Of a stretch of DNA of 64,000 nt, positions 5,193 through 43,469 are shown piece after piece. The stretch covers positions 1 through 64,000 of IMG/VR virus record IMGVR_UViG_3300031993_000024. One strand, written 5' to 3'. The position numbers and the translations under genes were made by a program. The stretch comes from a virus (lineage: Duplodnaviria; Heunggongvirae; Uroviricota; Caudoviricetes). How positions within the stretch are numbered: position 1 is the first letter of the stretch; each line of letters opens with the position of its first letter. The notes under the pieces were generated by a model, which saw only the letters and a list, made by a program, of their open reading frames with translations, did no database searches and was not told the DNA's origin.

Positions 5193-5207
5193 GTTGTTTT
5201 TTATATA
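5193..5207 (+). promoter_or_regulatory. conserved GTTGTTTTTTATATA motif (copy 1 of 7)
   Basis: Exact match to the 15-nt core found before seven gene starts. Confidence 0.35.
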
Positions 5208-6387: not shown

Positions 6388-8085
6388 ATGGCAGGATTTA
6401 TTAACAGAGGTATAGGTACCGGAATGTACGGAGGCCAAGTGACATTGCGTAAGAAGCTCGCGAATGTCAGGTTTACCGGCAGGGCCTATTCGCCTGACAA
6501 TATGACATCGCTTTCGCAGGTAATATCTGTTCCGCAGAACAGCTGGCACCGCGCTGAAGGCATTGGAGGTTCGCAGCCTGCAAGTTATTCAGTACAGAGG
6601 GAGACTTGTAGGAAATACGCCGCAGAAGACGACATAGACAAAATACTTGATATTGTTTGTGACGAGAGTATTTGTTCGACAGAGCAAGACCGTGATTTCG
6701 CATATATAGAATCAACGGCTGACAAGATTTCTGAAAAAGTGAAGGAGAAACTGCCTGAATACTTTATGAAGTTCAGGTATCTCTACGGCCTTATGAATAC
6801 AGATGATGTCTGGAGGCTTTTCAGGAGATGGATTGTCGATGGCAAGCTTGCATACCGTATAATATATGACGAAAAACAGAAAAACATAATTGACTTTGTA
6901 GAGCTTGACCCAGCGAATGTCGAAAAGATATGTGACAAAGACGGCAAGATACTGTATAAGGTCAGCACTAATGACTTAACGACGGGGAATGTCATAAACC
7001 TTACGTTGACTGAGCAGGAGATTGTTATCATATCTTATTCAGATGAAGATAACGACCTCAGCTATGTTTCAAGGCTTATACGTTCATTCAATACATTGAG
7101 GATTATGGAATCGACGAGAATTATATTCTCTGTCGTCAACTCCTCTTTGAAAATGAATTATGTCGTACCTGTCGGAGCGGTGTCGCCACAAAAGGGAAAG
7201 CAACGACTCGCGCAAGTTGCAGCAGACCAGGCTGAGCAAGTTGACTTCAACTGGTCGACAGGCGAGATAAAGACCAACGGACATCCGATGTTGCCGTTCT
7301 ATAAGCAGATGTTCTTCGCCATGACTGAAGGCAGCAAGCCTGAAGTTTCGGTCTTGAGCAATAACGGTGGACCAGACTTGTCGAATATACAGCCGTTGAC
7401 GTATTTCGCCGATAAGTTCCACGATATAACGAAAGTACCTCTTGCAAGGTTTGACAGACAGGCTGGTGCCCAATATACGATGAACGTCGAAGGAATACAT
7501 AGGGAAGAAATCAGGTTCAGCAGGTTTATAGCAAGGCTTCGGAATATTTACCAGATGCTTTTTATCAAGCCTATCTATATTCAGATTTGTCTTGACAACG
7601 AAATAAAGGATGACATTTCTTTCCTTGCATCTTTGCACCTCGTATACCAGTCAGACTCAGTCTATCTTCAAATTAAGAAGCTTACAATCATACAGCAGAA
7701 TATCAATGCTATTTCAGGTATTCTTAATTCGATACAGGTAACTGACGAACAAGGAAACCAAACACCATATTTCGACCCTGACTTCTTAATGAAGAAATTC
7801 TCGTTGTTCACGCCTGCAGAGCTTGAAGAAAATGAGAGGATTAAGAAGGAGAAAGCTAAGAAACGTAAAGAAGAGGCAGAAAAGGCTGCTACTGAGCAAC
7901 AACCTTCTATGGGAGGTGATATGGGCGGTGGTGGAATGGATATGGGAGGTGGCGATATGGGAGGTGGCGATATGGGAGGCGGCATGGACATGGGCGGCGG
8001 AGGCGATATGGGAGGCAGCATGGACATGAGCGGCGGAGCTCCTGAAACCGGCGGCGCTCCAGAAGGCGGTGAACCTGCAGTTTAA
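6388..8085 (+). CDS. portal protein (T4 gp20-like) with a Gly/Asp/Met-repeat C-terminal tail
   Basis: FRRWIVDGKLAYRII matches T4 gp20 FRRWYVDSRIFFHKII. PLARFDRQAGAQYTMNVEGIHREEIRFSRFIARL matches gp20 [35 protein letters not shown]. Size and synteny with the protease and MCP genes also fit. Confidence 0.85.
   Translation: MAGFINRGIGTGMYGGQVTLRKKLANVRFTGRAYSPDNMTSLSQVISVPQNSWHRAEGIGGSQPASYSVQRETCRKYAAEDDIDKILDIVCDESICSTEQDRDFAYIESTADKISEKVKEKLPEYFMKFRYLYGLMNTDDVWRLFRRWIVDGKLAYRIIYDEKQKNIIDFVELDPANVEKICDKDGKILYKVSTNDLTTGNVINLTLTEQEIVIISYSDEDNDLSYVSRLIRSFNTLRIMESTRIIFSVVNSSLKMNYVVPVGAVSPQKGKQRLAQVAADQAEQVDFNWSTGEIKTNGHPMLPFYKQMFFAMTEGSKPEVSVLSNNGGPDLSNIQPLTYFADKFHDITKVPLARFDRQAGAQYTMNVEGIHREEIRFSRFIARLRNIYQMLFIKPIYIQICLDNEIKDDISFLASLHLVYQSDSVYLQIKKLTIIQQNINAISGILNSIQVTDEQGNQTPYFDPDFLMKKFSLFTPAELEENERIKKEKAKKRKEEAEKAATEQQPSMGGDMGGGGMDMGGGDMGGGDMGGGMDMGGGGDMGGSMDMSGGAPETGGAPEGGEPAV
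7909..8042 (+). repeat. in-frame (GGDMGGG/MDMGGG) low-complexity repeat encoding the portal C-terminal tail
   Basis: MGGDMGGGGMDMGGGDMGGGDMGGGMDMGGGGDMGGSMDMSGG; a locally GC-rich repeated ATGGGAGGTGGCGAT unit. Confidence 0.8.
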
Positions 8086-14136: not shown

Positions 14137-14592
14137 ATGGAAGGAATATTTGAAGAAACAGTGAACAACTTGAAGATAGGAAATCTTCAGCAGATTAACG
14201 AAAGCTTGTTAAATTTGTCAGTAGACAATGCCCTAAAGCAGTATGTCTATTTCAAGAAAATGGAAAAGTATGCACAGGAGGCAATGCTCAGATTAAAAGA
14301 TGCAGCCATTAAAGAGGCTTCTGTAAATCTCAAAGGGAAGAAAGATTTTCCATATAATGATACAGTCGTGACTGTACGAAAGGCGGTCACAAAGTATAAA
14401 TATGACGTTTCAACCGAATGGCGTGAGGCGAAACATGTCTGTGAAGAGGCTGACCTCGCAAGAAAGGTGATTGAAGATAAGTTGAAGATTGCAACTGAAG
14501 AATTTCCGTATGTAAGCAAAATTACTGGAGAAATTATTTCGGAATGCCCTAAGGAGCCTTCAGAAGATACGATAGTCATAAAACTTTTGTAA
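14137..14592 (+). CDS. hypothetical protein
   Basis: 151-aa ORF. Its stop is adjacent to the next start. Confidence 0.6.
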   Translation: MEGIFEETVNNLKIGNLQQINESLLNLSVDNALKQYVYFKKMEKYAQEAMLRLKDAAIKEASVNLKGKKDFPYNDTVVTVRKAVTKYKYDVSTEWREAKHVCEEADLARKVIEDKLKIATEEFPYVSKITGEIISECPKEPSEDTIVIKLL

Positions 14593-14593
14593 G

Positions 14594-14950
14594 ATGGCAT
14601 ACATAGACAATAAAAAATATACTGAAGCTATCATAGAAAGCCAGAAAGCCGGCAAGGTTACCGATGAACTCGTAAAGTACTTTCAGATACATATCAAGCA
14701 TCTGAATATGAGAAACCGGAATAATAACCCAGAAGAGGCGAAGGACTATGAGCAATATGCTATGCTTGAACTTCTTAAGATGTACAAGAAGTTTGACGCA
14801 GAGAAAGGGAATGCTTTTTCATTCTTTACGAACCAGATTGTGTTTTCCCTTAATGCCGCTTATAACCAATACCATAAGAAAGGCGTTGAATTCATATCGA
14901 CATCTTATATAGATGAGGATGGTAATATCAAGGATAATTTCAGTATATAG
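14594..14950 (+). CDS. gp55-like late sigma factor (sigma-70 region-2-like only)
   Basis: KFDAEKGNAFSFFTNQIVFSLNAAYNQYHKK resembles sigma region 2 ([22 protein letters not shown]) and T4 gp55 [28 protein letters not shown]. Small size with no region 4, as in gp55. Confidence 0.5.
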   Translation: MAYIDNKKYTEAIIESQKAGKVTDELVKYFQIHIKHLNMRNRNNNPEEAKDYEQYAMLELLKMYKKFDAEKGNAFSFFTNQIVFSLNAAYNQYHKKGVEFISTSYIDEDGNIKDNFSI

Positions 14951-23774: not shown

Positions 23775-25730
23775 ATGGAAAATAAGAAATATATCGTTGA
23801 GAGTTTAAGTGACGGTGTCTGCTCAAGTTCTGCGGACGGCGGCGATATTGTTCTTGAAGGATGCTTCACGACATTTAACGTGAAGAATCGTAACAACAGG
23901 ATATATGACTCTAAGAATTTCCTTGAGAAGCTTGATGCTCTTACGGAAAAGATTAAGAATCATGACCTTCTCGGTGAGCTTGAACATCCCGCTAATATGA
24001 GGTATGTGTCTTATCAGAACGTTTCTCACATAGTTGAAAGTCTAAGCTATGACCAAAAGACAGATTCTATAAAGGGTCGTATCAAATTATTAAATACTCC
24101 TTCAGGAAGAATCGCGAAGACTCTTATAGAAAATAAAGTGCCTCTTCATATATCTTCAAGGGCTATCGGTACTTTGACACCTGACAATCATGTCGTTGTC
24201 GAAGAACTTATAACTTATGACCTTGTTGCTGAACCAGGTTTTGAGAATGCAGTTCTCCATGCAGTTAACGAAAGCAAGGGCGCGGGTTCTGACGCTCTTA
24301 TAAATGCCGTTAATGCTTTGAGTTCACAGAAGAATGCCAAAATGAAGAGCCGTGTAATACTCGAGTCTTTCGATGGCGCCGATTTGTACGAATTGCAGGA
24401 TGAAGGTCAGAAAGAACCTGAAAGCGGAAATGAAAAACCGAAAATAGACGGCAAGTCTATTATAGGTGAATTCCGTAAGGCGCTCGGTATGAATCCTGGC
24501 AAAATGGACATAACAGTCGACAGCGATATGGGTATCTGTTCTGTTGAATCAAATTCTGATACAGCAATAGTTAATTTCGTAAACGACCATGTTGAGGTTG
24601 AATTCGGAAAGAATGTAACAGGTGAATTCACAGGCATAATCAATAACGCTGTTGAACAATGTCTGAACAATATTGGTGCGAACATTACTGACGGTCCAAC
24701 CGTACAAGACGGAAAGACATATTTCTTTGTAAGTGGAATCAACTTTAATAATTATTATATGGAACAGAAGTTAGGCAACCCTCAAGATGTCGTAACAAGA
24801 CGCGACATGGATAAATACACTAAGTATTTGTCTGAATACTTGAATAAATTGAAAAAAGGTGTCGTTACAAGCGAAGACGTAGAAAAGTATACTGCATATC
24901 TTTCTGAACATCTTGCAGCTATGAATAAAAACGTAGTTACAAGTGATGCTATGGAAAAATATACAGGCTATCTGTCAGAACATCTTAAAAAGATGAATAA
25001 AGACGTTGTCACATCAAAGGATATGGAACGTTATACAGCATATTTGTCTGAACATCTTGAAAAGAACACGGTAACGGCTGAAATGCTTGAAGGATATACA
25101 AAATATCTTTCTGAAAGTTTCGATAAGGTTCTTCAGAAGAACAAGCAGCTTAATGAAAAAATTGAGATGCTTCAGAAGTATACAGAATATATCTCTGAGT
25201 CTCAGACTAAAATCAACAAAAAGCTTAGCGGTAAAATGCAGAGCATAGTTGAAGCTGCTGACAAATCTATAGAAGACATCAAGATGATGGTTGAAGGTAA
25301 ACAGCGCAGTACTGAAGACACTCAACTTCAAAACCTTGTGGAATCTGTAAATTCTATTGCTTCGTCTATTAAGGATACAAACAACAAGATGGAACAACAG
25401 AGTCAAGCCATAAATGAACAGAAATCTGTTACAGAGGCAGAAAAACTTATTCAATTTATGCCTGACTACTTGAAAGAATCTTGGAGCGCTCTTTCTGACA
25501 ACCGTAAGAAAGAAATCCTTAACGAAAGCAAATTGTATATTATCGGCAGTGTAGACGCAGCTGTTCGTTTCTGGAAGACAAGGAATCTTACGGAAAGCGT
25601 AAGCAGTCAAGATACGAAAAAATATCTTTCGGAATCTTTGAGGAATCAGAACAGGAACGTCCGTAATGAAGGAAAAGTACAGGCTTCTGTCGCTGAAGAG
25701 ATAAAAAGACGTTTGAAATACGGATTCTAA
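23775..25730 (+). CDS. prohead core protease (T4 gp21 family) fused to a coiled-coil scaffold-like C-terminal half
   Basis: N-terminal region (EGCFTTFNVKNRNNRIYD...GELEHP...HISSRAIG) fits the gp21/U9 serine protease His and Ser motifs. The C-terminal ~400 aa is helical and repetitive. 651 aa. Confidence 0.7.
   Translation: MENKKYIVESLSDGVCSSSADGGDIVLEGCFTTFNVKNRNNRIYDSKNFLEKLDALTEKIKNHDLLGELEHPANMRYVSYQNVSHIVESLSYDQKTDSIKGRIKLLNTPSGRIAKTLIENKVPLHISSRAIGTLTPDNHVVVEELITYDLVAEPGFENAVLHAVNESKGAGSDALINAVNALSSQKNAKMKSRVILESFDGADLYELQDEGQKEPESGNEKPKIDGKSIIGEFRKALGMNPGKMDITVDSDMGICSVESNSDTAIVNFVNDHVEVEFGKNVTGEFTGIINNAVEQCLNNIGANITDGPTVQDGKTYFFVSGINFNNYYMEQKLGNPQDVVTRRDMDKYTKYLSEYLNKLKKGVVTSEDVEKYTAYLSEHLAAMNKNVVTSDAMEKYTGYLSEHLKKMNKDVVTSKDMERYTAYLSEHLEKNTVTAEMLEGYTKYLSESFDKVLQKNKQLNEKIEMLQKYTEYISESQTKINKKLSGKMQSIVEAADKSIEDIKMMVEGKQRSTEDTQLQNLVESVNSIASSIKDTNNKMEQQSQAINEQKSVTEAEKLIQFMPDYLKESWSALSDNRKKEILNESKLYIIGSVDAAVRFWKTRNLTESVSSQDTKKYLSESLRNQNRNVRNEGKVQASVAEEIKRRLKYGF
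24804..25125 (+). repeat. about 4.5 in-frame tandem repeats (~72 nt, 24 aa: KYTxYLSEHLxxMNKxVVTSxDME) inside the scaffold region
   Basis: KYTKYLSEYLNKLKKGVVTSEDVE, then KYTAYLSEHLAAMNKNVVTSDAME, KYTGYLSEHLKKMNKDVVTSKDME, RYTAYLSEHLEKNTVTAEMLEG, YTKYLSESF. Confidence 0.8.
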
Positions 25731-25838: not shown

Positions 25839-27536
25839 TTGATAGAAATGGAAATCAATAGTGTAAAAGCCCTTCAGGATTGGGGCAAGGTGATTGAAGA
25901 ATCAACCGGAATAAAAGACCCTGTAAAAGTTGCTTGGATGTCTAAAGTTTGCGCTATCCAAGATAACGACGATAAAATGAAACCAATTTTGGAATCTGCT
26001 TTCTGGGGACCAACATTGAATCCGTCAATGACTATGCAAGGCGCTGGCGCAATTCAATTCCCTAATGGTGGTGAAAATGGTTTCTCTGGTGTACGTAACG
26101 GTTCAGCAGATGCAATCGCTTCAAGTGTAGCTATCGCAATGCAAGCAGCTGCTCAAACAATCGCTCTTGACTTGTTGGCAGTTGTACCGGTATCAGCTCC
26201 TCAAGGTCAATATCGTTTCTACGATACTGTTTACGAAGGTGGCCGTATCAATGGTGACTTGCGTACTTACGACAAAGATGGTAATGTAAGCTACAAATTT
26301 ACAAATGCAGTTGCTGACCCATTGCTTGTTGAAGTTGTTGAAGCTTCTGAAGAAGGTGCAGAATTATTGAAGAAAGTTATCGAAGCTGAAGGTTCTGAAG
26401 CTCCTGTTATTGAACAAGGTGATTTCAAATTGACATTCGTTGAACTTGGCTTCATCTCTGGTAAACCAATCTTCTTAGTTGAAAGAAAAGACGCTAAACC
26501 GGGTGAATTCAATGCACGTCGTTTCAATGGCGCTCAAACTCTTGCAGAAGCATTCGAAGGTATCTTCGTATTCGGTCAAGTAAATACGAAAGAAAATCAC
26601 ATCACTGCATTCACAGGTCGTGACTTCTATGAAAACTCAGTAGAAAAAACTGGTTCAAAGAATCCTTACGACAACAATTTCGGTGTAGAACCATTCGAAC
26701 GTGAAGAAGGAGAAGCTACTACAGTTAACTTCTTGGGTGCTAAACGTACTTCTTTCGATTACAAAGTAAGAACTTACCAAGTTGGTTTCTCAGCTACTTG
26801 GGAACAAATCGAAGATGCACAGGCTGACGGTCAAGACATCATCGCTCAAATCGAAGGTGATGCTCTTAACGAATTGTCTCAATCTACTAACAAGTACATC
26901 TTAACTAAGATGTGGGAATTGGCTGGCAAACATGCTGACCGTCTTGAAGACAGAGGCGAAGTATTGAACACTTACTTCAAATCAGTTGCAGATGCTGACG
27001 AAGACATTCCTGCTGCTTACAAAGATTACAAACAAGTAGTTGTTGACAACGGTGGTGAAACTTCGTTGACACTTCAAGCACGTGTAATGCGTAAATTGTT
27101 GTATGCTGCTAACATCATCTCTCACGATTCTCGTTTGTCAGGTGGTAAATTCTTCGCTATCGGTTCTACTCAGTTCGTAACTGCAGTACAATCTGTAGCA
27201 GGTCTTACTCAAATCACTTTGCCTAACAACGTTCAATCTGTAGCTGATGCTCCTAATCCAATTGGACAGGTAAGCAACATTACATTGTACCAAGACCCGA
27301 ACCTTCCTGTAAACTATACAGGCGTTTTGGTTGGTCGTATCACTAAACCTAATGACCCAGGTTTGATTTTCTTACCATACATTATGGCTAAGAAAGTAAC
27401 TACGACAGCAACTGCGACATTCGCATACGCTGGTGCAATGAAATCTCGTTTCGCACTTCTTGCTGCTGGTCACTATCCAGATTTGCAATACTTGCGTTTC
27501 GATATGGCATTTAGCCCATCAATCGAACTTGTGTAA
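25839..27536 (+). CDS. major capsid protein (T4 gp23-like)
   Basis: AAQTIALDLLAVVPVSAPQGQYRFYDTVYEG aligns to gp23 AIPNLIAFDICGVQPMNSPTGQVFALRAVYG. GGENGFSGVRNGSADAI matches gp23* N-terminal GGDHGYNATNIAAGQTSGA. An I-L-E|S site at residue 52 is consistent with propeptide removal. Confidence 0.9.
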   Translation: MIEMEINSVKALQDWGKVIEESTGIKDPVKVAWMSKVCAIQDNDDKMKPILESAFWGPTLNPSMTMQGAGAIQFPNGGENGFSGVRNGSADAIASSVAIAMQAAAQTIALDLLAVVPVSAPQGQYRFYDTVYEGGRINGDLRTYDKDGNVSYKFTNAVADPLLVEVVEASEEGAELLKKVIEAEGSEAPVIEQGDFKLTFVELGFISGKPIFLVERKDAKPGEFNARRFNGAQTLAEAFEGIFVFGQVNTKENHITAFTGRDFYENSVEKTGSKNPYDNNFGVEPFEREEGEATTVNFLGAKRTSFDYKVRTYQVGFSATWEQIEDAQADGQDIIAQIEGDALNELSQSTNKYILTKMWELAGKHADRLEDRGEVLNTYFKSVADADEDIPAAYKDYKQVVVDNGGETSLTLQARVMRKLLYAANIISHDSRLSGGKFFAIGSTQFVTAVQSVAGLTQITLPNNVQSVADAPNPIGQVSNITLYQDPNLPVNYTGVLVGRITKPNDPGLIFLPYIMAKKVTTTATATFAYAGAMKSRFALLAAGHYPDLQYLRFDMAFSPSIELV

Positions 27537-31757: not shown

Positions 31758-32726
31758 ATGAAATACAGGTCAAAGATTCTCATTAAGGATAAACAGAGGA
31801 AACAGGTAATACCAGCAAACAATAAGTTTGCAGTTGTGGCACGGAAAGGTAATACTGACAAGACAATGCCTATTAGGAAGTCAGCATTGCCGACAAACAT
31901 AGTTGACCCTAAACCTGAAGCAGTTCCTGTACTTGATGAAAGACAGGAATTTATCCAATGGTGTAAAGGCAAATATGACCTAAAGAATCCCAAGACGATA
32001 CAAGATAAGCTACAATGGCTTAAGCTTAACGATTTGTCGGAACTGAAAACGAGATGTGCCGATAAGATTCTTTTGCACGAATACTGTAAAGAAAAATTGG
32101 GAAAGGATATATGTATACCGATTCTGAAGGTATTTGACGGTAAGAACATTGATTTAGAAGGCCTTCCGAAGAGCTTCGTTCTGAAATGCAACCATGGCAG
32201 CGGAATGAACATTATAGTAAAGGATGAATCCAAACTTGACTATACAGAAGCCGTAAATAAATTATCGTCATGGCTTGATTCAGATTTTGCAGTCAAGAAC
32301 CATTATGAATGGCATTATCACGATATAGTCAGGAAAGCTTACGCCGAAAAGTATATGTTTGACTCGAAGCAGAAGGAATCGTTATATGATTACAAATTTT
32401 GGTGCTTTAACGGCGAGCCTAAACTGTACACGATAAATGCGGGACACGGGCATGGAGACATATTGTATTTCGATATGGATGACAACGTATGTAATTTTTA
32501 CGGGATACAGTATGACTTGAAGGATTTTGCAAAGCCGAAAAGTTTCGAGAAGATGAAAGAGATAGCAAAGATTCTTTCAAGTGACTTCAAATTTGTACGT
32601 GTCGACCTTTATGAGATTAAGGGTAAAATTTATTTAGGCGAGCTTACTTTCGCTCCAGGTTCTGGAATGTTTAGATATAAGAATAAGGAAGACGAAATAA
32701 TGGTAGGAGATATGTTGAAACTTTAA
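31758..32726 (+). CDS. ATP-grasp amidoligase-like protein (TupA-like ATP-grasp) with a shared 45-aa N-terminal module
   Basis: FVLKCNHGSGMNIIVKD...KFWCFNGEPKLYT...RVDLYEIKGKIYLGELTFAPGSG fits the TupA-like ATP-grasp family. Its N-terminus MKYRSKILIK...NNKFAVVARKGNTDKTMPIRKSALPTNI is paralogous to that of 33435. Confidence 0.6.
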   Translation: MKYRSKILIKDKQRKQVIPANNKFAVVARKGNTDKTMPIRKSALPTNIVDPKPEAVPVLDERQEFIQWCKGKYDLKNPKTIQDKLQWLKLNDLSELKTRCADKILLHEYCKEKLGKDICIPILKVFDGKNIDLEGLPKSFVLKCNHGSGMNIIVKDESKLDYTEAVNKLSSWLDSDFAVKNHYEWHYHDIVRKAYAEKYMFDSKQKESLYDYKFWCFNGEPKLYTINAGHGHGDILYFDMDDNVCNFYGIQYDLKDFAKPKSFEKMKEIAKILSSDFKFVRVDLYEIKGKIYLGELTFAPGSGMFRYKNKEDEIMVGDMLKL

Positions 32727-33434: not shown

Positions 33435-35183
33435 ATGAAATACAGGGCAAAGATACTTATTAAGAAAAGTCCGCAGAAACCGGTGATGCCAGTAAATAAA
33501 AAGTTTGCTGTTGTATCACAAAAAGGTAATTCTGGTAAGGCGATGCCTATCAGAAAATCATTACTGCCGATAAACATACGTAATCCAAAACTTGATTGGA
33601 ATAATGATGAGATTACACCAAAAATTATAGAGGCTTTTGAAAATCTTGAAATCTGGAAATATAAAAAGCCTAAGAAGAAATATCCTTACGCCAAGAAGAA
33701 AATCCATCTCATTCATTGGTGGTTTAAAGACAGGTCAAACCTTGTATTAAGCGATTTAGAGAAATTTCATTTTTCAATGTTGTGGCTTGCGGACTTCGAT
33801 AATAAGTTTGACGAGATACATTTCAATGTCGCGCTTGATAACGATACCAAGGAGGCAAGAGACTTTATAACAAAATCAATCAAAGAGCTTACCAAGAACG
33901 GGAAAGCCGATGTTAAAATAGAATTCAGAAAGAATAGCAAGAATACAGGTGAATTTGAAACCTGGGTAAAAATGCTGGACTTCGTTAGCAAGGCTGACAG
34001 CATAATTTTCTATTCTCATTTCAAAGGAGCTAAGTATAATGACGCCTCTAAGATACTCGACATAAAATACTGGTGTTACTTGATGTACCAAGGCTGTCTG
34101 ATGGACGGATGGGATTCTGCTCTTAAGACCCTTGAAGATAATTATTCCTATGGAGCGATAAGTTCATGCGCAAAGAGCGGACCGTTTAAGAAAGATGTCG
34201 ATATGATAAGGAACAGCTTGGAGGCTGACGGCATCAAAAATGACGGAATACATTATACAGGCACGTTCTATTTTTGGAATGGTGAGATGTGCAAGAAATA
34301 TTTTGCAAAGAATAATATCAAGCTGACTAAAAATAAATTGCTTGGTATAAAAGGAATAAGAATGAATTTCTTAAGCGAGACACTTTCTTCTAATTTGACG
34401 GGGAATGCGAGGACTTACTTCGGTGACAGGTCTGACGCCGGTATTACCAATATGTATAAAATGTATACCTACAACAAGTACGGCAAATACATAGAAAAGT
34501 TCAGGAATCTTTATAAGGATAATAACAGGAGCAAAAATATCTGTTACACCGTCATAATAAACGGGTATGACGACCTGAAGAATCCGCAGGTTATTTCACC
34601 GGCATGCAGGTATATCTGTTTTTCTGATGACAATCTGAAAAGCTATGTCTGGGAAATACATAAAATACCTGACGAGCTTAAGACGGTTGATGCTAAGAAA
34701 CAGTCAAGGATAATAAAGGTAATGCCTCAGAAGTATTTGCCTGAACACGAGTGGTCTATGTATATCGACGGCAACATAACCATCAATACCGACCCAGTCA
34801 AGTTCATATCGGATGTGTGTGATAACAACATATTCAGTATACCGCTTCATTTCAAGAGGACTTGTCTATATGATGAAGGCGATGTTGTAACAAGTTTCAG
34901 TATTGATAGTAAAGACGTCGTAAGCGCTCAAATGAAGAGATACCGCGATGAAGGATTTCCTCAAAATTACGGCTTGAATGAGAATAATCTTTTAGTTCGT
35001 AAGAATGACAAAGCTGTCAATAAAGTAAATGAAATGTGGGCGAACGAGATTCTTAAAGGTTCTTACAGGGACCAGCTGTCGCTGAGATATTGCTTATGGA
35101 AGCTTGATTTCGAGATAAACAACCTTCCAGCGACGATAGTCCGACAATCGAAGTATTTTACGTATAACCAGCATAAGAAATAA
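33435..35183 (+). CDS. multidomain protein: shared N-terminal module plus a putative glycosyltransferase-like C-terminal domain
   Basis: N-terminus MKYRAKILIK...NKKFAVVSQKGNSGKAMPIRKSLLPINI is paralogous to 31758. C-terminal ICYTVIINGYDDLKNP...ICFSDDNLK resembles GT-A (DUF616-type) proteins. Confidence 0.65.
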   Translation: MKYRAKILIKKSPQKPVMPVNKKFAVVSQKGNSGKAMPIRKSLLPINIRNPKLDWNNDEITPKIIEAFENLEIWKYKKPKKKYPYAKKKIHLIHWWFKDRSNLVLSDLEKFHFSMLWLADFDNKFDEIHFNVALDNDTKEARDFITKSIKELTKNGKADVKIEFRKNSKNTGEFETWVKMLDFVSKADSIIFYSHFKGAKYNDASKILDIKYWCYLMYQGCLMDGWDSALKTLEDNYSYGAISSCAKSGPFKKDVDMIRNSLEADGIKNDGIHYTGTFYFWNGEMCKKYFAKNNIKLTKNKLLGIKGIRMNFLSETLSSNLTGNARTYFGDRSDAGITNMYKMYTYNKYGKYIEKFRNLYKDNNRSKNICYTVIINGYDDLKNPQVISPACRYICFSDDNLKSYVWEIHKIPDELKTVDAKKQSRIIKVMPQKYLPEHEWSMYIDGNITINTDPVKFISDVCDNNIFSIPLHFKRTCLYDEGDVVTSFSIDSKDVVSAQMKRYRDEGFPQNYGLNENNLLVRKNDKAVNKVNEMWANEILKGSYRDQLSLRYCLWKLDFEINNLPATIVRQSKYFTYNQHKK

Positions 35184-36262: not shown

Positions 36263-37111
36263 ATGGAAAAATTAAAGACATTCAAAAGCTTCATCAAAGA
36301 AAGTATTGATTTGAATGCTTTCAGAAAAAATAATGGAAAGTACTATCCTGAAGATAGAGATGAATTGAAATTGCTTATGGAAGCTCTTATAGAGGAGAGA
36401 GGTTTTGAAGGTGACTTTAATGATATTGACACATCAAGGATTACTGATATGAGCCATTTATTTGCATTTGCCAGAAGTTTTAATGGTGATATATCACAAT
36501 GGGATACAAGTAATGTGACGAACATGCGAAGAATGTTCAGTAGTGCAGAAAAGTTCAATCAATCTATTGAAAACTGGGAGGTTTCAAATGTAAAAGATAT
36601 GGGAATGATGTTTATGTCTGCAAAAAGTTTCAATCAACCTATTGGAAACTGGAATGTATCAAATGTAGAGGATATGGGAAGTATGTTTAGTGCTGCAGAA
36701 AAGTTCAACCAATCTATTGAAAACTGGGATGTCTCAAATGTCAAAATTATGAGAAGTATGTTTAGTGCTGCAAAAAGCTTCAATCAGCCAATTGGAAACT
36801 GGAATATTTCAAATGCCTATTATATGCCTTTTATGTTCCATAGAGCAGAGAAGTTCAATCAACCAATTGAAAACTGGGATGTCTCAAATGTAAAAAATAT
36901 GAGAAGCATGTTTAGTTTTGCAAAATGTTTTAATCAGCCAATTGGAAACTGGGATGTTTCAAATGTAGAAGATATGGAAGCTATGTTTCATTATACTGAA
37001 TCTTTCAACCAAGATATTTCAAATTGGAATGTTTCGAAAGAAGTAATATGCAGGGATATGTTCGTTAATTGTCCAATCAAGCAGGAATATAAACCTGATA
37101 TAAAACAATAA
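36263..37111 (+). CDS. CTS-like leader (MEKLKTFKSFIKES) plus DUF285/BspA-like repeat protein
   Basis: Leader, then ~9 repeats of FNQxIxNWxVSNVxxMxxMF, matching the DUF285 mycoplasma-type repeat. Confidence 0.8.
   Translation: MEKLKTFKSFIKESIDLNAFRKNNGKYYPEDRDELKLLMEALIEERGFEGDFNDIDTSRITDMSHLFAFARSFNGDISQWDTSNVTNMRRMFSSAEKFNQSIENWEVSNVKDMGMMFMSAKSFNQPIGNWNVSNVEDMGSMFSAAEKFNQSIENWDVSNVKIMRSMFSAAKSFNQPIGNWNISNAYYMPFMFHRAEKFNQPIENWDVSNVKNMRSMFSFAKCFNQPIGNWDVSNVEDMEAMFHYTESFNQDISNWNVSKEVICRDMFVNCPIKQEYKPDIKQ
36470..37060 (+). repeat. in-frame ~75-78-nt tandem repeats encoding DUF285-type repeats
   Basis: FNQSIENWEVSNVKDMGMMFMSAKS, then FNQPIGNWNVSNVEDMGSMFSAAEK, and so on. Confidence 0.75.
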
Positions 37112-37232
37112 AGTAAGACAATATGAAAAGAGAACGTCAGAGTGAAATTCTTTGACACTTTCTTTTTATCGAGTAGCTTCGCATAGAATCTGAATATAAA
37201 TAACCGGGAAAACCATAAATAGATTGTGGATA

Positions 37233-37259: not shown

Positions 37260-37802
37260 ATGGAAAAATTAAAGTCTTATAAACAGTTAATTGCAGAATC
37301 AGATGATGCCGGAAGATTCTTGAAAGCTGATACAAGTGTAATAAGCGATTCCATTTATGAGTCTTTCTTTGAAAAGCCATTTCAAGGGGAAGAAAGAACG
37401 CTTGAAGATTTGTATGCTGTATCTAAGACATCCGACAAGTATAAAGGTCTTAGATTAAAAGAAATATCCAAGATTGAAACTGATATACAAATAATTCAGG
37501 CTATAGATAAATGGGTTGAGAAGAAAAACGTTCGTGATTATACTTTCCTGAAGAGAATTGGGCAAGGTTCGATGATAAACACGAAACTATATTCATCTAA
37601 AAATACGCATTGGGGCGGCATGGCGACAGTCGACCTTATGAATGGTATCGCGAAACATGTCATTTACGATTACTCCGAGACCATAGAAGGAGAAGCAATC
37701 GAAGGCTTCATGAAGATAGAGTATAATGATGATATGCTTGCGATATACCAGCAGTATGACAACCATACTGTAGGCAAGTATCATATCTATGTAAAACTGT
37801 AG
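37260..37802 (+). CDS. hypothetical protein with CTS-like leader MEKLKSYKQLIAES
   Basis: The track ORF 37224 starts at a non-ATG codon. The ATG at 37260 sits inside the conserved cassette. Confidence 0.7.
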   Translation: MEKLKSYKQLIAESDDAGRFLKADTSVISDSIYESFFEKPFQGEERTLEDLYAVSKTSDKYKGLRLKEISKIETDIQIIQAIDKWVEKKNVRDYTFLKRIGQGSMINTKLYSSKNTHWGGMATVDLMNGIAKHVIYDYSETIEGEAIEGFMKIEYNDDMLAIYQQYDNHTVGKYHIYVKL

Positions 37803-37807
37803 GCGAC

Positions 37808-38278
37808 ATGAGTAAGGGATTGCTGACATATAGCAAGTTCTTAAAAGAGTCCGTAAGTCTTGACGACTTGACGAACCTCATCATTGAATGGGAACCTAAA
37901 TGGAAGGTATCTGTTGAGGAATATGATGAGAAGATGCGTAAGCTGAATAATACTGAATACTTGTTTGACCTTTCAAAATATACAGTAGACACAGATAAGG
38001 CTCGTTTAATTATTTGGATAGGTTCAAGAAAATCTGATGGCGTTATAGTCATAGACGCAAGGGCAAGGCTTAAAGATGAAAGCTTTTATAGTTCTGAACT
38101 GCCTGGTTCGAGGACGAATGCCGAAAGAGAGGTCATGAAAAAAATGATGAATGACAATACCTTACTTACAGCGATAACCGAATTTATTAACAAAAAGTAT
38201 CATACGAGGATTGCTGCTCTTGCCGTTAAGAACCGTATAACGATGTCAAACTGGCTTGGTGCCGAAACTGAAATATAA
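37808..38278 (+). CDS. hypothetical protein with a degenerate CTS-like leader MSKGLLTYSKFLKES
   Basis: 156-aa ORF. Confidence 0.65.
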   Translation: MSKGLLTYSKFLKESVSLDDLTNLIIEWEPKWKVSVEEYDEKMRKLNNTEYLFDLSKYTVDTDKARLIIWIGSRKSDGVIVIDARARLKDESFYSSELPGSRTNAEREVMKKMMNDNTLLTAITEFINKKYHTRIAALAVKNRITMSNWLGAETEI

Positions 38279-38279
38279 T

Positions 38280-38753
38280 ATGGAAAAATTAAAGACTTTC
38301 AAAAGTTTTATCAATGAAGCTATTTCTGGCTGGGATAACGAAATCAATGATTATGTTGTCAAAAAAGATAGTAGAAAACGCGAACGAGGATATATATTCG
38401 TACCGAATGGTGAAGAATTATACAAGCGCGAATTTAGAGCACCTCAAATAGCTTGGGGTTTCGAAGACTACCACGTATCTTCTTGGGATAAAGTCAGACT
38501 GAGAAAAGAAGGTTACAGCGACGAACAGATTGAGCTTATAGATAAATATCTCGGTCTATGGACTTCATATCGAAGCACTTATGCTGTCGTAAGTAAGACA
38601 TCGTTAAGACAATCTGAGAAACTGACAGGAATCGCTACTCCAGACAAAGATGTCTATGTAACATACGAGGTAGGTGCTGTCGGAATATATCAGAAACGTT
38701 ACTATGACTTAGAAAAATTTGCGACCTTTGTAAAGAATCATTGTAAAAAATAA
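38280..38753 (+). CDS. hypothetical protein with CTS-like leader MEKLKTFKSFINEA
   Basis: The track ORF starts at TTG 38256, overlapping the previous gene. The ATG at 38280 begins the conserved leader. Confidence 0.65.
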   Translation: MEKLKTFKSFINEAISGWDNEINDYVVKKDSRKRERGYIFVPNGEELYKREFRAPQIAWGFEDYHVSSWDKVRLRKEGYSDEQIELIDKYLGLWTSYRSTYAVVSKTSLRQSEKLTGIATPDKDVYVTYEVGAVGIYQKRYYDLEKFATFVKNHCKK

Positions 38754-38798
38754 AAGAACAGAATTAAAACATTTTTATCTAAAAACTTGAGAAAGATT

Positions 38799-40706
38799 AT
38801 GGAACACTTAAAGACATTCAAACAATTTTATGAATCAAGGGAAGAGGACCTTGAACTGTACAATAAGGCGAAAGACGCATACTATAATGGCAACCCCATT
38901 ATGGGCGACGCTGAATTTGATGAACTCGAAAGAAAGCTTGGTCTTGAAAATCAGGGCTATATAGGTACACATCATTCTGATAATTATACCGTAAAACATC
39001 CGATAAAAATGGGAAGCCTTTCGAAAATACAGATAAAAGAAGGTTCAGACGGTCAAACCCATTTTGACTCATATATCGATACCCTTAACAAGTATTTCCA
39101 AAATGTTCCGGACGATGGAATCATTGAGGTAACTCCAAAATTCGATGGATGTTCTTTTGAGGTTGTGTTCGATGACGAAGGAAATGTTGAAGGAATATCG
39201 ACAAGAGGCGATGGTGAATACGGTACGGATGTAAGCCACTGGCTGAGTCCTTATGTAGACGAAATACCTTACAAGGAATTCCTGCAGAAAGGCAAGAAGC
39301 TCGTGGTAAGGGGAGAAGCTCTTATAAGCTTTAATGACTTTAACGCAGGCTATCAGGATAAATTCGCGAATACAAGGGCGTTTGTTGCTGGCATGTTCGG
39401 TCAGAAATGGGACGGAAAACAGGAACAGCTTGATATAAGGAAAGATTTGTCAATAGTTGTGTATGACTTCAGGCTTGTATCTCCGTCAGGCTCATATCAA
39501 TGGGTTGACTATAATACGGTTCCTGGCTATGACGTATGCGCATACAATGTGCTTACCTTTAAGAAATCAGAACTCAGTCCTATGGAATTCGCGAGGATTT
39601 ACGAAGAAATGGAGAAAGTTCGTAAGGATTACAAATTCCCTCTTGACGGTTTCGTGTTGAAACCAGAAGTGAAATACCGCAAGACGGAAGATGTTCAGCG
39701 TCCGAGCGACTGCGTCGCAATCAAATACAAACCAAGTATCCTCGAGACAGAAATCACGGAGATAGAATGGAATGTTGGAAAGACAGGAGAACTTTTCCCG
39801 AAGGCTGTGTTCAAGACAATAAAGATGGACGGAAAGAACATCAACAAGGCGTCATTGCATAACTACGGATATGTTAAGGACAATAACGTCGGAGTTGGTT
39901 CCATCATTAAGATTTCGCTTGCCGGCGATATAATTCCTTTCGTGTATGAAATCGTAAGAGACGGAGGCGACAATATGGCTCCTACCGAGAATGTGACCGT
40001 TAAAGGACCTCATCTTATGATTGACTTGTCTGCTGAAGAAAAAGTTGTCATAAAGGTAATAGCAGGCGCTGAGGCGATAAACATCAGAAATTTCAAAGAG
40101 GCGACGATACGTAAGATTATGCCTGAGTTCTTTACAAGCGAGGATGTAAAAATCGAGAATGTCCTTGACTTTATGAAAGATGAATCAATCGCTTTTATGA
40201 AGGAACGTTTCGGAACAGGGACATCGATAATGAATATCGTAAACGCTCTTACTGAAAGACGTAAGACTTTGACGCTTAATGAAATCATACTTGCCCTGCA
40301 GTTCCGTCTGTGCGGTAAGGTCGCTGCCGATGTCTGTGCCAAGTTTATCAAGGGCGACAAGTCAAATCATCTCATAGGCGTGCCTGGTGAAGTCAAGAGA
40401 TGGCTTCTTGATGAGAATTCTCAGGAATACCAGACTATTATGGGGTATGCGAATTTGTTCAAAGTTAATATGGCTCCGGAAGCGGCCGCTGCGTCGACGG
40501 CGATACCTGTGATTATGACAGGAAGTCCGAAAGAATTCGGATATGTTACCAAGGCAGCTTTCCTTGCCGCACATCCTGAATATATAGAGACATCTGACTG
40601 GAAGCAATGTAAAATCCTGTTTACGGACGATATGTCTTCGACATCCGGAAAAATGAAGAAAGCTGCCGCTCTTGGAGTTGAGGTGAAAACATACGGGGAA
40701 GCATAA
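38799..40706 (+). CDS. ligA: NAD-dependent DNA ligase (LigA-like domains Ia, NTase, OB, HhH, BRCT) preceded by CTS-like leader MEHLKTFKQFYES
   Basis: YYNGNPIMGDAEFDEL fits domain Ia. KMGSLSKI fits LigA PMLSLDNAF. TPKFDGCSF is the KxDG motif; STRGDGEYGTDVS fits ATRGDGTTGEDIT; FANTRAFVAGMFGQ fits motif IV NPRNAAAGSLRQ. LAGDIIPFVYEIV marks the OB end. HhH-like and BRCT-like regions (AIPVIMTGS...LGVEV) are present. Confidence 0.85.
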   Translation: MEHLKTFKQFYESREEDLELYNKAKDAYYNGNPIMGDAEFDELERKLGLENQGYIGTHHSDNYTVKHPIKMGSLSKIQIKEGSDGQTHFDSYIDTLNKYFQNVPDDGIIEVTPKFDGCSFEVVFDDEGNVEGISTRGDGEYGTDVSHWLSPYVDEIPYKEFLQKGKKLVVRGEALISFNDFNAGYQDKFANTRAFVAGMFGQKWDGKQEQLDIRKDLSIVVYDFRLVSPSGSYQWVDYNTVPGYDVCAYNVLTFKKSELSPMEFARIYEEMEKVRKDYKFPLDGFVLKPEVKYRKTEDVQRPSDCVAIKYKPSILETEITEIEWNVGKTGELFPKAVFKTIKMDGKNINKASLHNYGYVKDNNVGVGSIIKISLAGDIIPFVYEIVRDGGDNMAPTENVTVKGPHLMIDLSAEEKVVIKVIAGAEAINIRNFKEATIRKIMPEFFTSEDVKIENVLDFMKDESIAFMKERFGTGTSIMNIVNALTERRKTLTLNEIILALQFRLCGKVAADVCAKFIKGDKSNHLIGVPGEVKRWLLDENSQEYQTIMGYANLFKVNMAPEAAAASTAIPVIMTGSPKEFGYVTKAAFLAAHPEYIETSDWKQCKILFTDDMSSTSGKMKKAAALGVEVKTYGEA

Positions 40707-40724
40707 CATAAAATTTATAAGGAC

Positions 40725-41420
40725 ATGAAAAAATTAAAGACATATAATCAGTTCCTTAAAGAAGGAAAAGGCATACGTAAAGAATATGACAGCAGCCTTG
40801 AAAATATGATGGATGAATACGGAAGTGATTCCTATGGTTCTGTCATAACAAAAGAGGTCGAGGAACTGCAGACAATGCTGAAGGACAAAAATCTTTTGGA
40901 GCCTGTCGATAAAGTTGTGTCTGTAATGTTATACCCTGAACAAGATTGGCATCCGATATATGCGATGATACGTCTTGAAAACGGCTTGCAGTACGTAACG
41001 ACAATTATAAATGTAGCCGATAAAAGCAAACTAAGACTGATGTCTGACGAGATGTATAAGATATTGCTTGAATGGCTTCAGAATGTCATAGATGAAGACA
41101 AGAAGAAAAAATCAAGTATGAAGTCAATGCCTGAAATCAAGGATTTGCTGCCTGAATATCTGAATATCGTCAGTAGATTTGTTGAAATGTTTAATATAGG
41201 CAGAGCCAAGTATGAAGCTAAGATATATAAGACAGACTCGATTCTTATTACATATAACGGAAGATATAATGGGGTTCTCATATTCTCCAAAACTGAGTAT
41301 GCCTATAATATCGAAGTACATGCTGTTACTGGCGGATTTTATGATACTGATTATTTGTATGATGAATCCAGCAAAGTTATTAAAGATGCCGTTAATTACA
41401 TTTTAAAACAACAACTATGA
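40725..41420 (+). CDS. hypothetical protein with CTS-like leader MKKLKTYNQFLKEG
   Basis: 231-aa ORF. Confidence 0.7.
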   Translation: MKKLKTYNQFLKEGKGIRKEYDSSLENMMDEYGSDSYGSVITKEVEELQTMLKDKNLLEPVDKVVSVMLYPEQDWHPIYAMIRLENGLQYVTTIINVADKSKLRLMSDEMYKILLEWLQNVIDEDKKKKSSMKSMPEIKDLLPEYLNIVSRFVEMFNIGRAKYEAKIYKTDSILITYNGRYNGVLIFSKTEYAYNIEVHAVTGGFYDTDYLYDESSKVIKDAVNYILKQQL

Positions 41421-42136
41421 TTATGAAAATAAATGACAGAAATATGAAAGATATTCTCGGCGAGCTTAGTAAGGTCGTATCTGATGCGATAGGTCTTGAG
41501 AATATCGTTGGTTACTATACGAAGAAAACATACAGCTTCAAGTCAGATGTCCTGACGATTACTTTGTCTTATCACGAAGACCCTCAACGGGAATATTATG
41601 ATTTGAAGCAAATCAAGTCTGACGCGTATAATGCCGCTCAGAGTATATTTGGAGTATTTGCTCTGCAAGATTATAAAGAGCAAGCTGATGTTACGAAAGA
41701 TGAGATGTACGTCAATATCATCTTCAAGTTTACTGTCGACGAACTTGAAAAGGTGAAAGTCGTATATGACAGGCTTTTTACCGAGGGTAGCTCAAAGCTA
41801 CTTACTTACAGCCAGTTTATCAATGAGAGTTCTAAGAATGGTGTAGAGCTTGGTAACTATGAATTCGCGTATAGATGCGATGAAGAGGAGAATGCCGACG
41901 AGCTTATGGAAATAACTCATTATGACGAATTTGCGAATAATGACTACAGCATACAGGATGATTATTTCGGTTCTACAGTTAAAATCGTCAATACCGATGA
42001 GATGCTTCCACATTTATTCGGCAACAAGCCTGAAGAGTCAGAGATAGAATACTGTGCTTTGAATACCGTTTTGAACATAGCATTCATACTTGATAAATCT
42101 GGCTATCATTGGATTTATGAACTACTCACAAACTAA
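41417..42136 (+). CDS. hypothetical protein (no leader); its 3' end overlaps the tnpB stop by 15 nt
   Basis: 239-aa ORF; the last codons may be IS-derived. Confidence 0.55.
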   Translation: MIMKINDRNMKDILGELSKVVSDAIGLENIVGYYTKKTYSFKSDVLTITLSYHEDPQREYYDLKQIKSDAYNAAQSIFGVFALQDYKEQADVTKDEMYVNIIFKFTVDELEKVKVVYDRLFTEGSSKLLTYSQFINESSKNGVELGNYEFAYRCDEEENADELMEITHYDEFANNDYSIQDDYFGSTVKIVNTDEMLPHLFGNKPEESEIEYCALNTVLNIAFILDKSGYHWIYELLTN

Positions 42137-43318
42137 AGATTTGTGGGCTTCAGGCTTCGCAGACAATTGCTTGCAAGCAAGTCTTACATCGTCTCCACCT
42201 GTGTAATCGACAGTCCCTGCCGATAGAGTTGTTAATCCTTCTCTAAGGATATTGATAGCAGCATTTAAGTCCCTATTGTGGTGTTTACCACATTTAGGAC
42301 AAGTCCATTCTCGTACACACAAGTCTTTGATAGATTGATTGATATATCCACAGTCACTACAAGTCTGTGAGCTTGGAAAATATCTGTTAATCTTCACTAA
42401 AGTCTTGTCTTCCCTTTCACACTTGTATTCAAGATAGTTTACGAATGTTCCCCAACTGACATCAGCAATATGCTTTGCAAGTTTATGGTTCTTAATCATT
42501 CCTTTTACGTTAAGGTTCTCACAACAGATTATGTCATAGTTTCTGACAAGTTCTGTTGATACCTTGTGTAATACATCATTTCTTGAATTTGAAATTTTCT
42601 TATGAATCTTGACAACTTTTCTTCTTTGGTTTTCAAAAGAACGGCTGTCTTTTTGCTTACGAGAAAGATGCCTCTGTGCTTTACTTAATTTTCTTTCATA
42701 TTTCTTTGTATATCTATGATTTTTGTAAACTTTTCCATCTGACGTAATAACAAAGTCTTTTAATCCTAAATCAATTCCGACAGATTTATTAGATTTTTGT
42801 ATTGGTTCATATAACTGTTCTGTAAGAATAGCAACATAATATTTTCCATCGCAATCTTTAGATACTGTCATAGAACGTACATTCCCTGATATTTCTTGAT
42901 GTTTCTTTATTTTTATATTAGACTTGAATTTTGGTAATGATATAGAATTGCCAACAACAGAACAAAATTGTGGCACTACAAAAGAGTTTCTGTCTTTCCT
43001 TGATTTGAATCTTGGAAACTTCGCATTTCCTCTAAAGAAGTTAAGATATGCAGATTCAAGATGTCTCAAACTATGTTGTAAGGTTTGACTGTTAATCTCA
43101 TTTAACCAGACAAATTCTTCATGCTTCTTTAATAGAGTTAGTTTCTTAGCTTGGTCATAGTAATTATCAGACTTTTGTGTAGCTTTATATTGCTCCATAC
43201 GTTCGTTGAGAAAATAATTATAGACGAAGCGAGTGCATCCAAAATACTTACCTAACAACTCTACTTGTTCCGTATTTGGATACATTCTAAACTTATATGT
43301 CTTATAAATCGTTTTCAC
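42122..43318 (-). CDS. tnpB: TnpB (IS605 OrfB-family RNA-guided nuclease)
   Basis: HTH-like N-terminus, RuvC-I SVGIDLGLKDFV, zinc finger CSDCG...CPKCG, and RuvC-III NRDLNAAINIL. 398 aa. Confidence 0.95.
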   Translation of the reverse strand: MKTIYKTYKFRMYPNTEQVELLGKYFGCTRFVYNYFLNERMEQYKATQKSDNYYDQAKKLTLLKKHEEFVWLNEINSQTLQHSLRHLESAYLNFFRGNAKFPRFKSRKDRNSFVVPQFCSVVGNSISLPKFKSNIKIKKHQEISGNVRSMTVSKDCDGKYYVAILTEQLYEPIQKSNKSVGIDLGLKDFVITSDGKVYKNHRYTKKYERKLSKAQRHLSRKQKDSRSFENQRRKVVKIHKKISNSRNDVLHKVSTELVRNYDIICCENLNVKGMIKNHKLAKHIADVSWGTFVNYLEYKCEREDKTLVKINRYFPSSQTCSDCGYINQSIKDLCVREWTCPKCGKHHNRDLNAAINILREGLTTLSAGTVDYTGGDDVRLACKQLSAKPEAHKSLVCE

Positions 43319-43469
43319 AGTAACTATAACTTTCTATATTTATAAATTTACAAAAAACTTTTATTTTTGTAAAATTATTCTAAATAATTATACTTCAAAA
43401 AACAGGCACAAATATTACTTGAGATGTCATTTAATATTTGTTTGTAAATACAGAAAACAATTATTACAA

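Follow-up and report, generated by a model that had tools for sequence, protein, structure and literature searches.

A candidate capsid-targeting leader on the NAD-dependent DNA ligase of an uncultured T4-like jumbo phage

A 64,000-nucleotide stretch of tailed-phage DNA (Caudoviricetes; positions 1 to 64,000 of IMG/VR record IMGVR_UViG_3300031993_000024, hereafter the window) encodes a nicotinamide adenine dinucleotide (NAD)-dependent DNA ligase of the LigA type that begins with a 12-residue leader resembling the capsid-targeting sequence (CTS) of bacteriophage T4. The leader is probably a capsid-targeting propeptide and the ligase a cargo of the phage head that would leave the head together with the DNA, which suggests that this uncultured lineage of jumbo phages uses T4-type capsid targeting for a new class of cargo. 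In the literature searched, no phage DNA ligase was described as CTS-tagged or as packaged in the virion. The two features concerned are the open reading frame (ORF) of the ligase and its leader:

38799-40706, + strand: LigA-type NAD-dependent DNA ligase ORF (635 residues, 71.7 kDa, isoelectric point (pI) 5.3)
38799-38834, + strand: 12-codon CTS-like leader MEHLKTFKQFYE, lacking one residue that the paralogous leaders have (F-Y-E in place of F-I-x-E)

Six ORFs of the window bear the leader, namely the ligase and five otherwise unrelated proteins, and one more ORF has a variant of it. These ORFs, together with one that holds a leader-like motif internally, are listed below (the arrow marks the candidate cleavage position here and throughout):

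360-1121, - strand: distant leader-bearing ORF, MEKLKTYKQFIKE↓S
36263-37111, + strand: DUF285 repeat protein with leader MEKLKTFKSFIKE↓S
37260-37802, + strand: leader-bearing ORF without family match, MEKLKSYKQLIAE↓S
37808-38278, + strand: ORF with variant leader MSKGLLTYSKFLKE↓S
38280-38753, + strand: leader-bearing ORF, MEKLKTFKSFINE↓A
40725-41420, + strand: leader-bearing ORF, MKKLKTYNQFLKE↓G
41417-42136, + strand: ORF with internal leader-like motif SSKLLTYSQFINE↓SS at approximately residues 125-139

The pattern M-x(0-3)-[LIVM]-K-[ST]-[FYW]-x2-[FYLIVM] occurs six times in the six-frame translation of the window, and all six occurrences coincide with the start codon (ATG) of a long ORF. Shuffled sequence yields 0.56 occurrences on average and never more than three, and on these counts the leader is not a chance feature. 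The leaders of the window differ by 37 synonymous codon changes, a TCA/AGT serine switch among them, which indicates that selection or conservation acts on the leader peptide. Judged by its distribution, the leader is a module of this genome and is not specific to the ligase. A scan of IMG/VR with a degenerate DNA pattern for MEKLK[TS][FY]K returned 35 loci, nearly all of them chance or internal matches, and no recognisable leader system. The internal motif SSKLLTYSQFINE↓SS of the ORF at 41417-42136 is closely similar to the N-terminus of the ORF at 37808 (MSKGLLTYSKFLKE↓S) and could mean either that two genes have fused or that the protein is processed internally.

The CTS of T4 reads MKTYQEFIAE (PMC8442874). 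In the T4 internal protein IPIII, targeting depends on positions 4 and 7 of the CTS and processing on positions 8 and 10, and the substitution E10D blocks cleavage but not packaging (PMC9026906). The leaders of the window, aligned as KT[FY]K.F I.E with KTYQEFIAE, have F or Y, F or L, I or L, and E at the four mapped positions, and the ligase (KTFKQF compared with KTYQEF in T4) carries F at both CTS positions 4 and 7. The original prediction described the leader as CTS-like, and this description is borne out by the resemblance at the functionally mapped targeting positions and by the presence of a matching protease, a scaffold-like tail and gp23 and gp20 genes in the window. In T4, such propeptides bring the internal proteins and Alt, an ADP-ribosyltransferase, into the gp22 core; gp21 removes the propeptides, cutting Alt at ITE-6, and the trimmed proteins are ejected together with the DNA (PMC5694885). 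As with T4 IPI, IPII, IPIII and Alt, a short N-terminal propeptide of 10-20 residues would be carried by otherwise unrelated proteins of this phage, CTS positions 4 and 7 of the leaders are aromatic, the leaders end in I/L-x-E, and the candidate cargo genes are clustered and variable. This phage differs from T4 in its candidate cargo, an NAD-dependent DNA ligase of 72 kDa, and in the ligase's own site (F-Y-E).

The head-assembly genes on which this comparison depends are:

6388-8085, + strand: T4 gp20-like portal protein
23775-25730, + strand: prohead protease of the gp21 family (Peptidase_S77) with a fused scaffold-like tail of ~450 residues (651 residues in total)
25848-27536, + strand: gp23-like major capsid protein with N-terminal candidate cleavage sites KVIEE↓S and PILE↓S

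A tail sheath gene is also present in the window. The protease matches PF03420 (Peptidase_S77) and phrog_207, and a tblastn search with it matched 1567 phage records, T4-like coliphages among them. Its S77 domain comprises approximately residues 1-210, and the scaffold-like tail contains six repeats of ~24 residues (VVTSxDMEKYTxYLSEHL, with the common part ..EKYTxYLSEHL..) whose core MEKYTGYLSEHL looks like the leaders; we infer that this tail acts as a scaffold. The protease-scaffold protein contains 21 sites of the form [ILVFMY]xE followed by S, A, G, H, Y or D and itself begins with MENKKYIVE↓S, and the two candidate sites near the N-terminus of the capsid protein are kept in relatives. Since a scaffold-like core, a Glu-specific protease of gp21 type and propeptides ending in I/L-x-E occur in one phage, the whole T4-type logic appears to be present, with the difference from T4 that protease and scaffold-like domain are fused in a single protein. 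Two relatives (contigs L046 and L047) share the architecture of protease and repeat tail with different repeat sequences. Two small ORFs on the + strand 5' of head genes, at 14594-14950 and 14137-14592, start with MAYIDNKKYTEAIIE↓S and MEGIFEETVNNLKIGNLQQINE↓S and are possible core proteins; the former has a close relative in L046 that lacks the Glu-Ser site.

A comparison of ligases from other phages separates the leader from the enzyme. More than 100 homologues at ~43% identity do not have the leader and begin directly at the helix of domain Ia (MDKRELYDQAKEAYYNG), and the LigAs of phages PAU and pT24 lack it too, as do the Lak and T5-like enzymes. In contrast to the ~43% group, the six closest orthologues (54-76% identity) each carry an N-terminal extension that follows the pattern [ILV]-x-E and then S, A or D and leads directly into the conserved Ia helix; the ends of these extensions read FINE↓S, KVNE↓S, FIKE↓A, FISE↓D, FLAE↓S and YLNE↓S. 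The original prediction spoke of a leader fused to the ligase, and the leader is indeed a separable addition, absent from these homologues and common to other proteins of the same phage. Residues 1-12 have a predicted local distance difference test (pLDDT) score <50 in the AlphaFold2 model of the ligase. Subunit A of a T5-like LigA was considered as a further leader-bearing ligase because its alignment began at residue 1 of the query, and was rejected as the region concerned is an ordinary Ia helix (MQHVKEFIKLCQDAYYKG). Unrelated N-terminal extensions of ~50-100 residues are present on Lak-type megaphage ligases, for example MTNYTTLKNELYAVKQYELKG... and MNNSSEIKLLIDNITELMNS... (L001 = Lak-B6; P0014-P0047, P0091-P0118).

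Leaders of this kind are also found on other proteins in related contigs. In L045, an Alt-like ADP-ribosyltransferase (PF03496) begins with MKHILSHDDYINE↓A and the adjacent ligase with MKHILSRVDFIKE↓A, the common pattern being MKHILS..D[FY]I.E↓A. A tblastn search of phage genomes with this ADP-ribosyltransferase gave no match, and its identity rests on Pfam and PHROG. The ADP-ribosyltransferase of L005 begins with MIKTFAEYIAE↓R, and in the 255-kb relative L047 a small ORF among head and tail genes begins with MKNKFLTFKEYIVE↓A. Thus an ADP-ribosyltransferase bears the tag in relatives of this phage, as Alt does in T4. Large RimK/ATP-grasp proteins also recur in the related contigs (L004 5003-6436, - strand; L005 6649-8118, + strand; L046 15630-17969, - strand; L047 15981-18299, - strand); their genes are located close to the head genes in L046 and L047, their N-termini in L004 and L005 hold I/L-x-E↓S motifs (ELITE↓S and IVTE↓S), and the proteins could likewise be processed or packaged.

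The product of 38799-40706 is a complete and apparently active LigA without a zinc finger. The ORF runs from the ATG at 38799 to the TAA at 40704-40706, and the reading frame as well as the strings YYNGNPIMGDAEFDEL, TPKFDGCSF, STRGDGEYG and FANTRAFVAG quoted in the original prediction are all present in the translation. An in-frame TTG lies four codons 5' of the ATG, and the five paralogous leaders all begin at the equivalent ATG. A start at the next methionine (M35) was rejected because it would remove the invariant residues Y28 and Y29 of domain Ia. The domains of the ligase are as follows:

38835-38987, + strand: domain Ia, binding nicotinamide mononucleotide (NMN); Y28, Y29, D37 and D41 invariant in the family, Phe at position 40
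38988-39662, + strand: nucleotidyltransferase (adenylation) domain; K114-x-D-G, R136, E173, R193, D283-G284 and K288
39744-39962, + strand: OB-fold domain (Pfam)
39963-40031, + strand: cysteine-free beta-hairpin linker at the position of the LigA Cys4 zinc finger (AlphaFold2 model and Cys count)
40032-40457, + strand: helical HhH-like domain (profile alignment and fold, not Pfam)
40497-40703, + strand: BRCT-like C-terminal domain (fold level only)

Pfam recognises the adenylation domain (DNA_ligase_aden, PF01653, residues 64-288, E = 1.1e-17) and the OB fold (DNA_ligase_OB, PF03120, residues 316-388, E = 1.9e-18). In an alignment of 46 family members, K114, D116, G117, R136, E173, R193, D283, G284 and K288 are invariant, and so are the four Ia residues listed. 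The NMN-binding residues of domain Ia (Y22, H23, D32, Y35 and D36 in E. coli LigA) are kept as in the bacterial enzymes, with Phe at position 40. In Foldseek, the AlphaFold2 model (mean pLDDT 87.5) aligns with structures of full-length LigA across 620-706 columns, and the family profile aligns with residues 72-535 of E. coli LigA and with residues 23-531 of 1v9p, domain Ia included. The order of domains (Ia, nucleotidyltransferase, OB, helical HhH-like region and BRCT-like domain) and the catalytic motifs are those of E. coli LigA (PDB 2OWO) and of phage LigAs; the phage enzymes compared were those of the Lak megaphages, at 41% identity, and the split ligase PR1 of T5-like type (PDB 9HU3).

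The original prediction goes too far in stating that every LigA domain is present, since the enzyme has no zinc finger; domains Ia, adenylation and OB were found, along with BRCT by fold only and HhH by profile and fold only. Residues 385-432 contain no cysteine, the 46 aligned homologues have 0-2 cysteines there, and the AlphaFold2 model shows a beta-hairpin, so that by this count the Cys4 zinc finger is missing throughout this clade of phages, unlike in bacterial LigA. A further difference from the bacterial enzyme is the first HhH hairpin (GIG), which is degenerate and reads RNF. HhH and BRCT gave no Pfam match on the ligase even at E <= 10, and a sequence-profile search of the PDB with the C-terminal region gave nothing for either domain, the BRCT being detected by fold comparison alone. 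The C-terminal 76 residues modelled on their own (pLDDT 85.8) have as top fold matches the BRCT domain of RFC1, the C-terminus of E. coli LigA (probability 0.99), subunit B of the PR1 ligase (TM-score 0.65) and the BRCT domains of MCPH1, TOPBP1 and PARP4, with weak E-values of 0.03-0.3.

LigA is common among phages (1127 records), and the ligase by itself is therefore not novel. A scan for KxDG revealed no evident second ligase in the 64-kb window, with 174 kb of the 238,631-bp contig lying outside it. This metagenomic contig, to which the window belongs, bears the exact ligase protein. Among deposited phages, the nearest are uncultured huge phages and the Lak megaphages of Prevotella, with 29-41% identity at the protein level, and a megablast of 20 kb around the ligase gene against the phage collection gave no near match, that is, no relative at the DNA level.

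The ligase gene lies in a tandem array of closely spaced genes that is preceded by a motif resembling the late promoters of T4:

37214-37223, + strand: T4-late-promoter-like CATAAATAGA, heading the tandem array from 37260 to 42136 that includes the ligase

The motif YATAAATAKA occurs 14 times in the window (1.6 expected) and is located 20-100 nucleotides 5' of a number of genes, including those for portal, sheath and capsid. The genes of the array (37260, 37808, 38280, the ligase, 40725 and 41417) are separated by gaps of -4 to 45 nucleotides with no convincing terminator between them; the scans for terminators and for a sigma-70 consensus gave the same result as shuffled sequence and are uninformative for this phage. 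A second upstream motif, TTGTTTWTTATATWRAA, is present eight times (0.01 expected; + strand positions 5194, 10902, 27616, 28493, 36235, 44767, 50414 and 59234), in each case 5' of a gene start or in a gap between ORFs, and may mark another class of promoter. Gene 36263 has TTGTTTWTTATATWRAA together with a near-match to the late-type motif.

We infer core binding, packaging, cleavage and ejection of the ligase, and its biological purpose, along the lines known from T4. The ligase would be transcribed within the array of leader-bearing genes under the late-type promoter, and the aromatic residues of its leader, equivalent to CTS positions 4 and 7, would bind a scaffold core made of the repeat tail of the protease-scaffold protein. 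As the gp23-like shell assembles, the ligase would be enclosed, and the gp21-family protease would then degrade the scaffold and trim propeptides after [ILV]-x-E. The ligase might stay in the head with or without its leader, its own site being F-Y-E, and might either leave with the DNA at infection or act on the DNA during packaging. The presence of the ligase in the virion, its injection and a role against host nickases, as put forward in the original prediction, go beyond what was observed.

Several observations weigh against the ligase as a processed head cargo, and cleavage after FYE, as put forward in the original prediction, is its weakest step. Compared with the orthologue at 76% identity (FKQF-YE↓S and FKEFINE↓S, respectively) the ligase leader has lost one residue, which places Phe at P3. 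The ends of the neighbouring leaders (IKE↓S, IAE↓S, INE↓A and LKE↓G) and of the orthologous ligases (INE↓S, IKE↓A, ISE↓D and LAE↓S) as well as the candidate sites of scaffold tail and capsid protein have Ile, Leu or Val at P3; no other leader of the window has Phe there, and among the 21 loose-motif sites of the protease-scaffold protein a single one does. The (I/L)-x-E end of the T4 propeptide (positions 8 and 10) is likewise not matched by F-Y-E↓S. The deletion makes cleavage of the ligase leader uncertain, and by analogy with the T4 positions F-Y-E should affect cleavage more than targeting. In addition, the ligase has no YATAAATAKA of its own, the leader-bearing proteins are mostly acidic (pI 4.4-5.6) while the T4 internal proteins are basic, no cultured relative was found among the deposited phages searched, and in L005 and L045 the ligase adjoins gp32 and NrdD, typical replication genes, so that an ordinary replication role for the ligase is also possible. 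Finally, blocks of promoter plus leader are nearly identical at the DNA level in two relatives, which indicates that leaders spread by recombination and that some of the fusions could be neutral or recent by-products.

The last two points would be expected if the leader were the passenger of a mobile cassette of promoter, 5' untranslated region and start codon without any targeting role, and the ligase a cytoplasmic enzyme of replication and repair. The ligase of L004 and the next gene share a block of ~105 nucleotides (~-50 to +55) that contains the promoter-like TATAAATA, directly upstream of the ligase, and the leader; the two copies differ at a single position, and their similarity breaks off abruptly after codon 18. 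In L045, 23 nucleotides upstream of the ATG are common to ADP-ribosyltransferase and ligase in addition to the leader, and genes 36263 and 37260 of the window share 38 upstream nucleotides. A passenger leader is nevertheless unlikely, as the ligase leader of the window keeps its peptide next to a diverged upstream region and the leaders of the window keep theirs despite many synonymous changes. Leaders that are wholly different between phages still end in an aromatic residue, two further residues and [FL][IL]xE↓[SA], like the CTS of T4, and the same tag is found on an Alt-like ADP-ribosyltransferase, T4 Alt being the classic packaged enzyme (PMC5694885). The evidence for targeting applies equally if the leader brings the ligase to the prohead to seal nicks there during packaging and not in the next host, and PMC10893049, citing Zachary and Black 1981, states that T4 encapsidation needs DNA ligase and that nicked substrates hamper packaging. 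This role is quite improbable, given that the supply of NAD+ inside a prohead is doubtful, where an enzyme could act only if pre-adenylated and then only once, and that the CTS cargo precedents of T4, the internal proteins and Alt, are ejected proteins (PMC5694885). A leader so short, predicted to be disordered or helical with low model confidence and borne by acidic cargo unlike the T4 internal proteins, could also be some other signal, such as one for timed degradation or for a phage complex outside the capsid, with a convergent likeness to the CTS. Such a signal is very improbable in a phage that has a full T4-type head module, where [ILV]xE↓S recurs in the scaffold-like tail, the capsid protein and the N-terminus of the protease, and whose leaders agree with the CTS at all four mapped positions (PMC9026906).

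A packaged ligase would have parallels in other viruses. Jumbo phages SPN3US and phiKZ process many ejection proteins with a gp21 homologue, and diverged paralogues (gp53 and gp54 of SPN3US and the inner-body proteins of phiKZ) keep identical N-terminal propeptides with protease motifs (PMC5694885). They differ from the present phage in their motif (A/S/G-x-E), in propeptides that are mostly much longer and in the absence of a ligase from the reported cargo. The DNA ligase of African swine fever virus (ASFV) is ATP-dependent. This ligase, NP419L, is packaged in the virion core along with base-excision-repair enzymes (PMC12172490). If the phage ligase is packaged, both would be late-expressed viral ligases in the particle, for which repair of the genome before replication has been proposed in ASFV (PMC12172490), although ASFV is a eukaryotic virus with an unrelated packaging route that involves neither propeptide nor scaffold.

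If capsid targeting of the ligase is correct, a phage that brings a DNA-joining enzyme into the cell would have been found for the first time, and the concept of injected first responders would be widened from inhibitors and modifiers (T4 IPI and Alt) to genome repair. The T4 capsid-targeting system would be conserved far beyond the coliphages, namely in uncultured relatives of the Lak phages, jumbo phages associated with Bacteroidota, and would take the form of a recombining promoter-plus-leader cassette able to recruit new cargo. A broader scenario, which is put forward tentatively and is on balance doubtful, is that a clade of ~240-kb T4-like gut phages loads an enzyme kit into the capsid by means of a portable promoter-plus-leader cassette (the ligase, the Alt-like ADP-ribosyltransferase and several unknown proteins) and that the ligase, possibly pre-adenylated, is injected and seals nicks or breaks before phage gene expression. 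In that scenario the ligase would parallel, in a phage, the repair enzymes that ASFV packages, and it might counter host defences that nick DNA or deplete NAD. Since the leader is nearly the CTS of T4, capsid targeting of the ligase can be tested in T4 itself, and the leaders would add to the tags with which proteins can be loaded into phage heads.

Two further features of the window were noted. The TupA-like ATP-grasp protein at 31758-32726 (+ strand) and the TOD1/MUCI70 glycosyltransferase-like protein at 33435-35183 (+ strand) have in common an N-terminal module of 52 residues (MKYR[SA]KILIK...MPIRKS.LP.NI; 65% identity, E = 8e-18) that is unlike the leader. Directly after the leader-gene array there is a gene of TnpB/IS605 OrfB type (42122-43318, - strand) with YATAAATAKA just upstream of it (43335-43344, - strand), and a second TnpB gene is located in the relative L005 (12581-13837), two genes away from the ligase.

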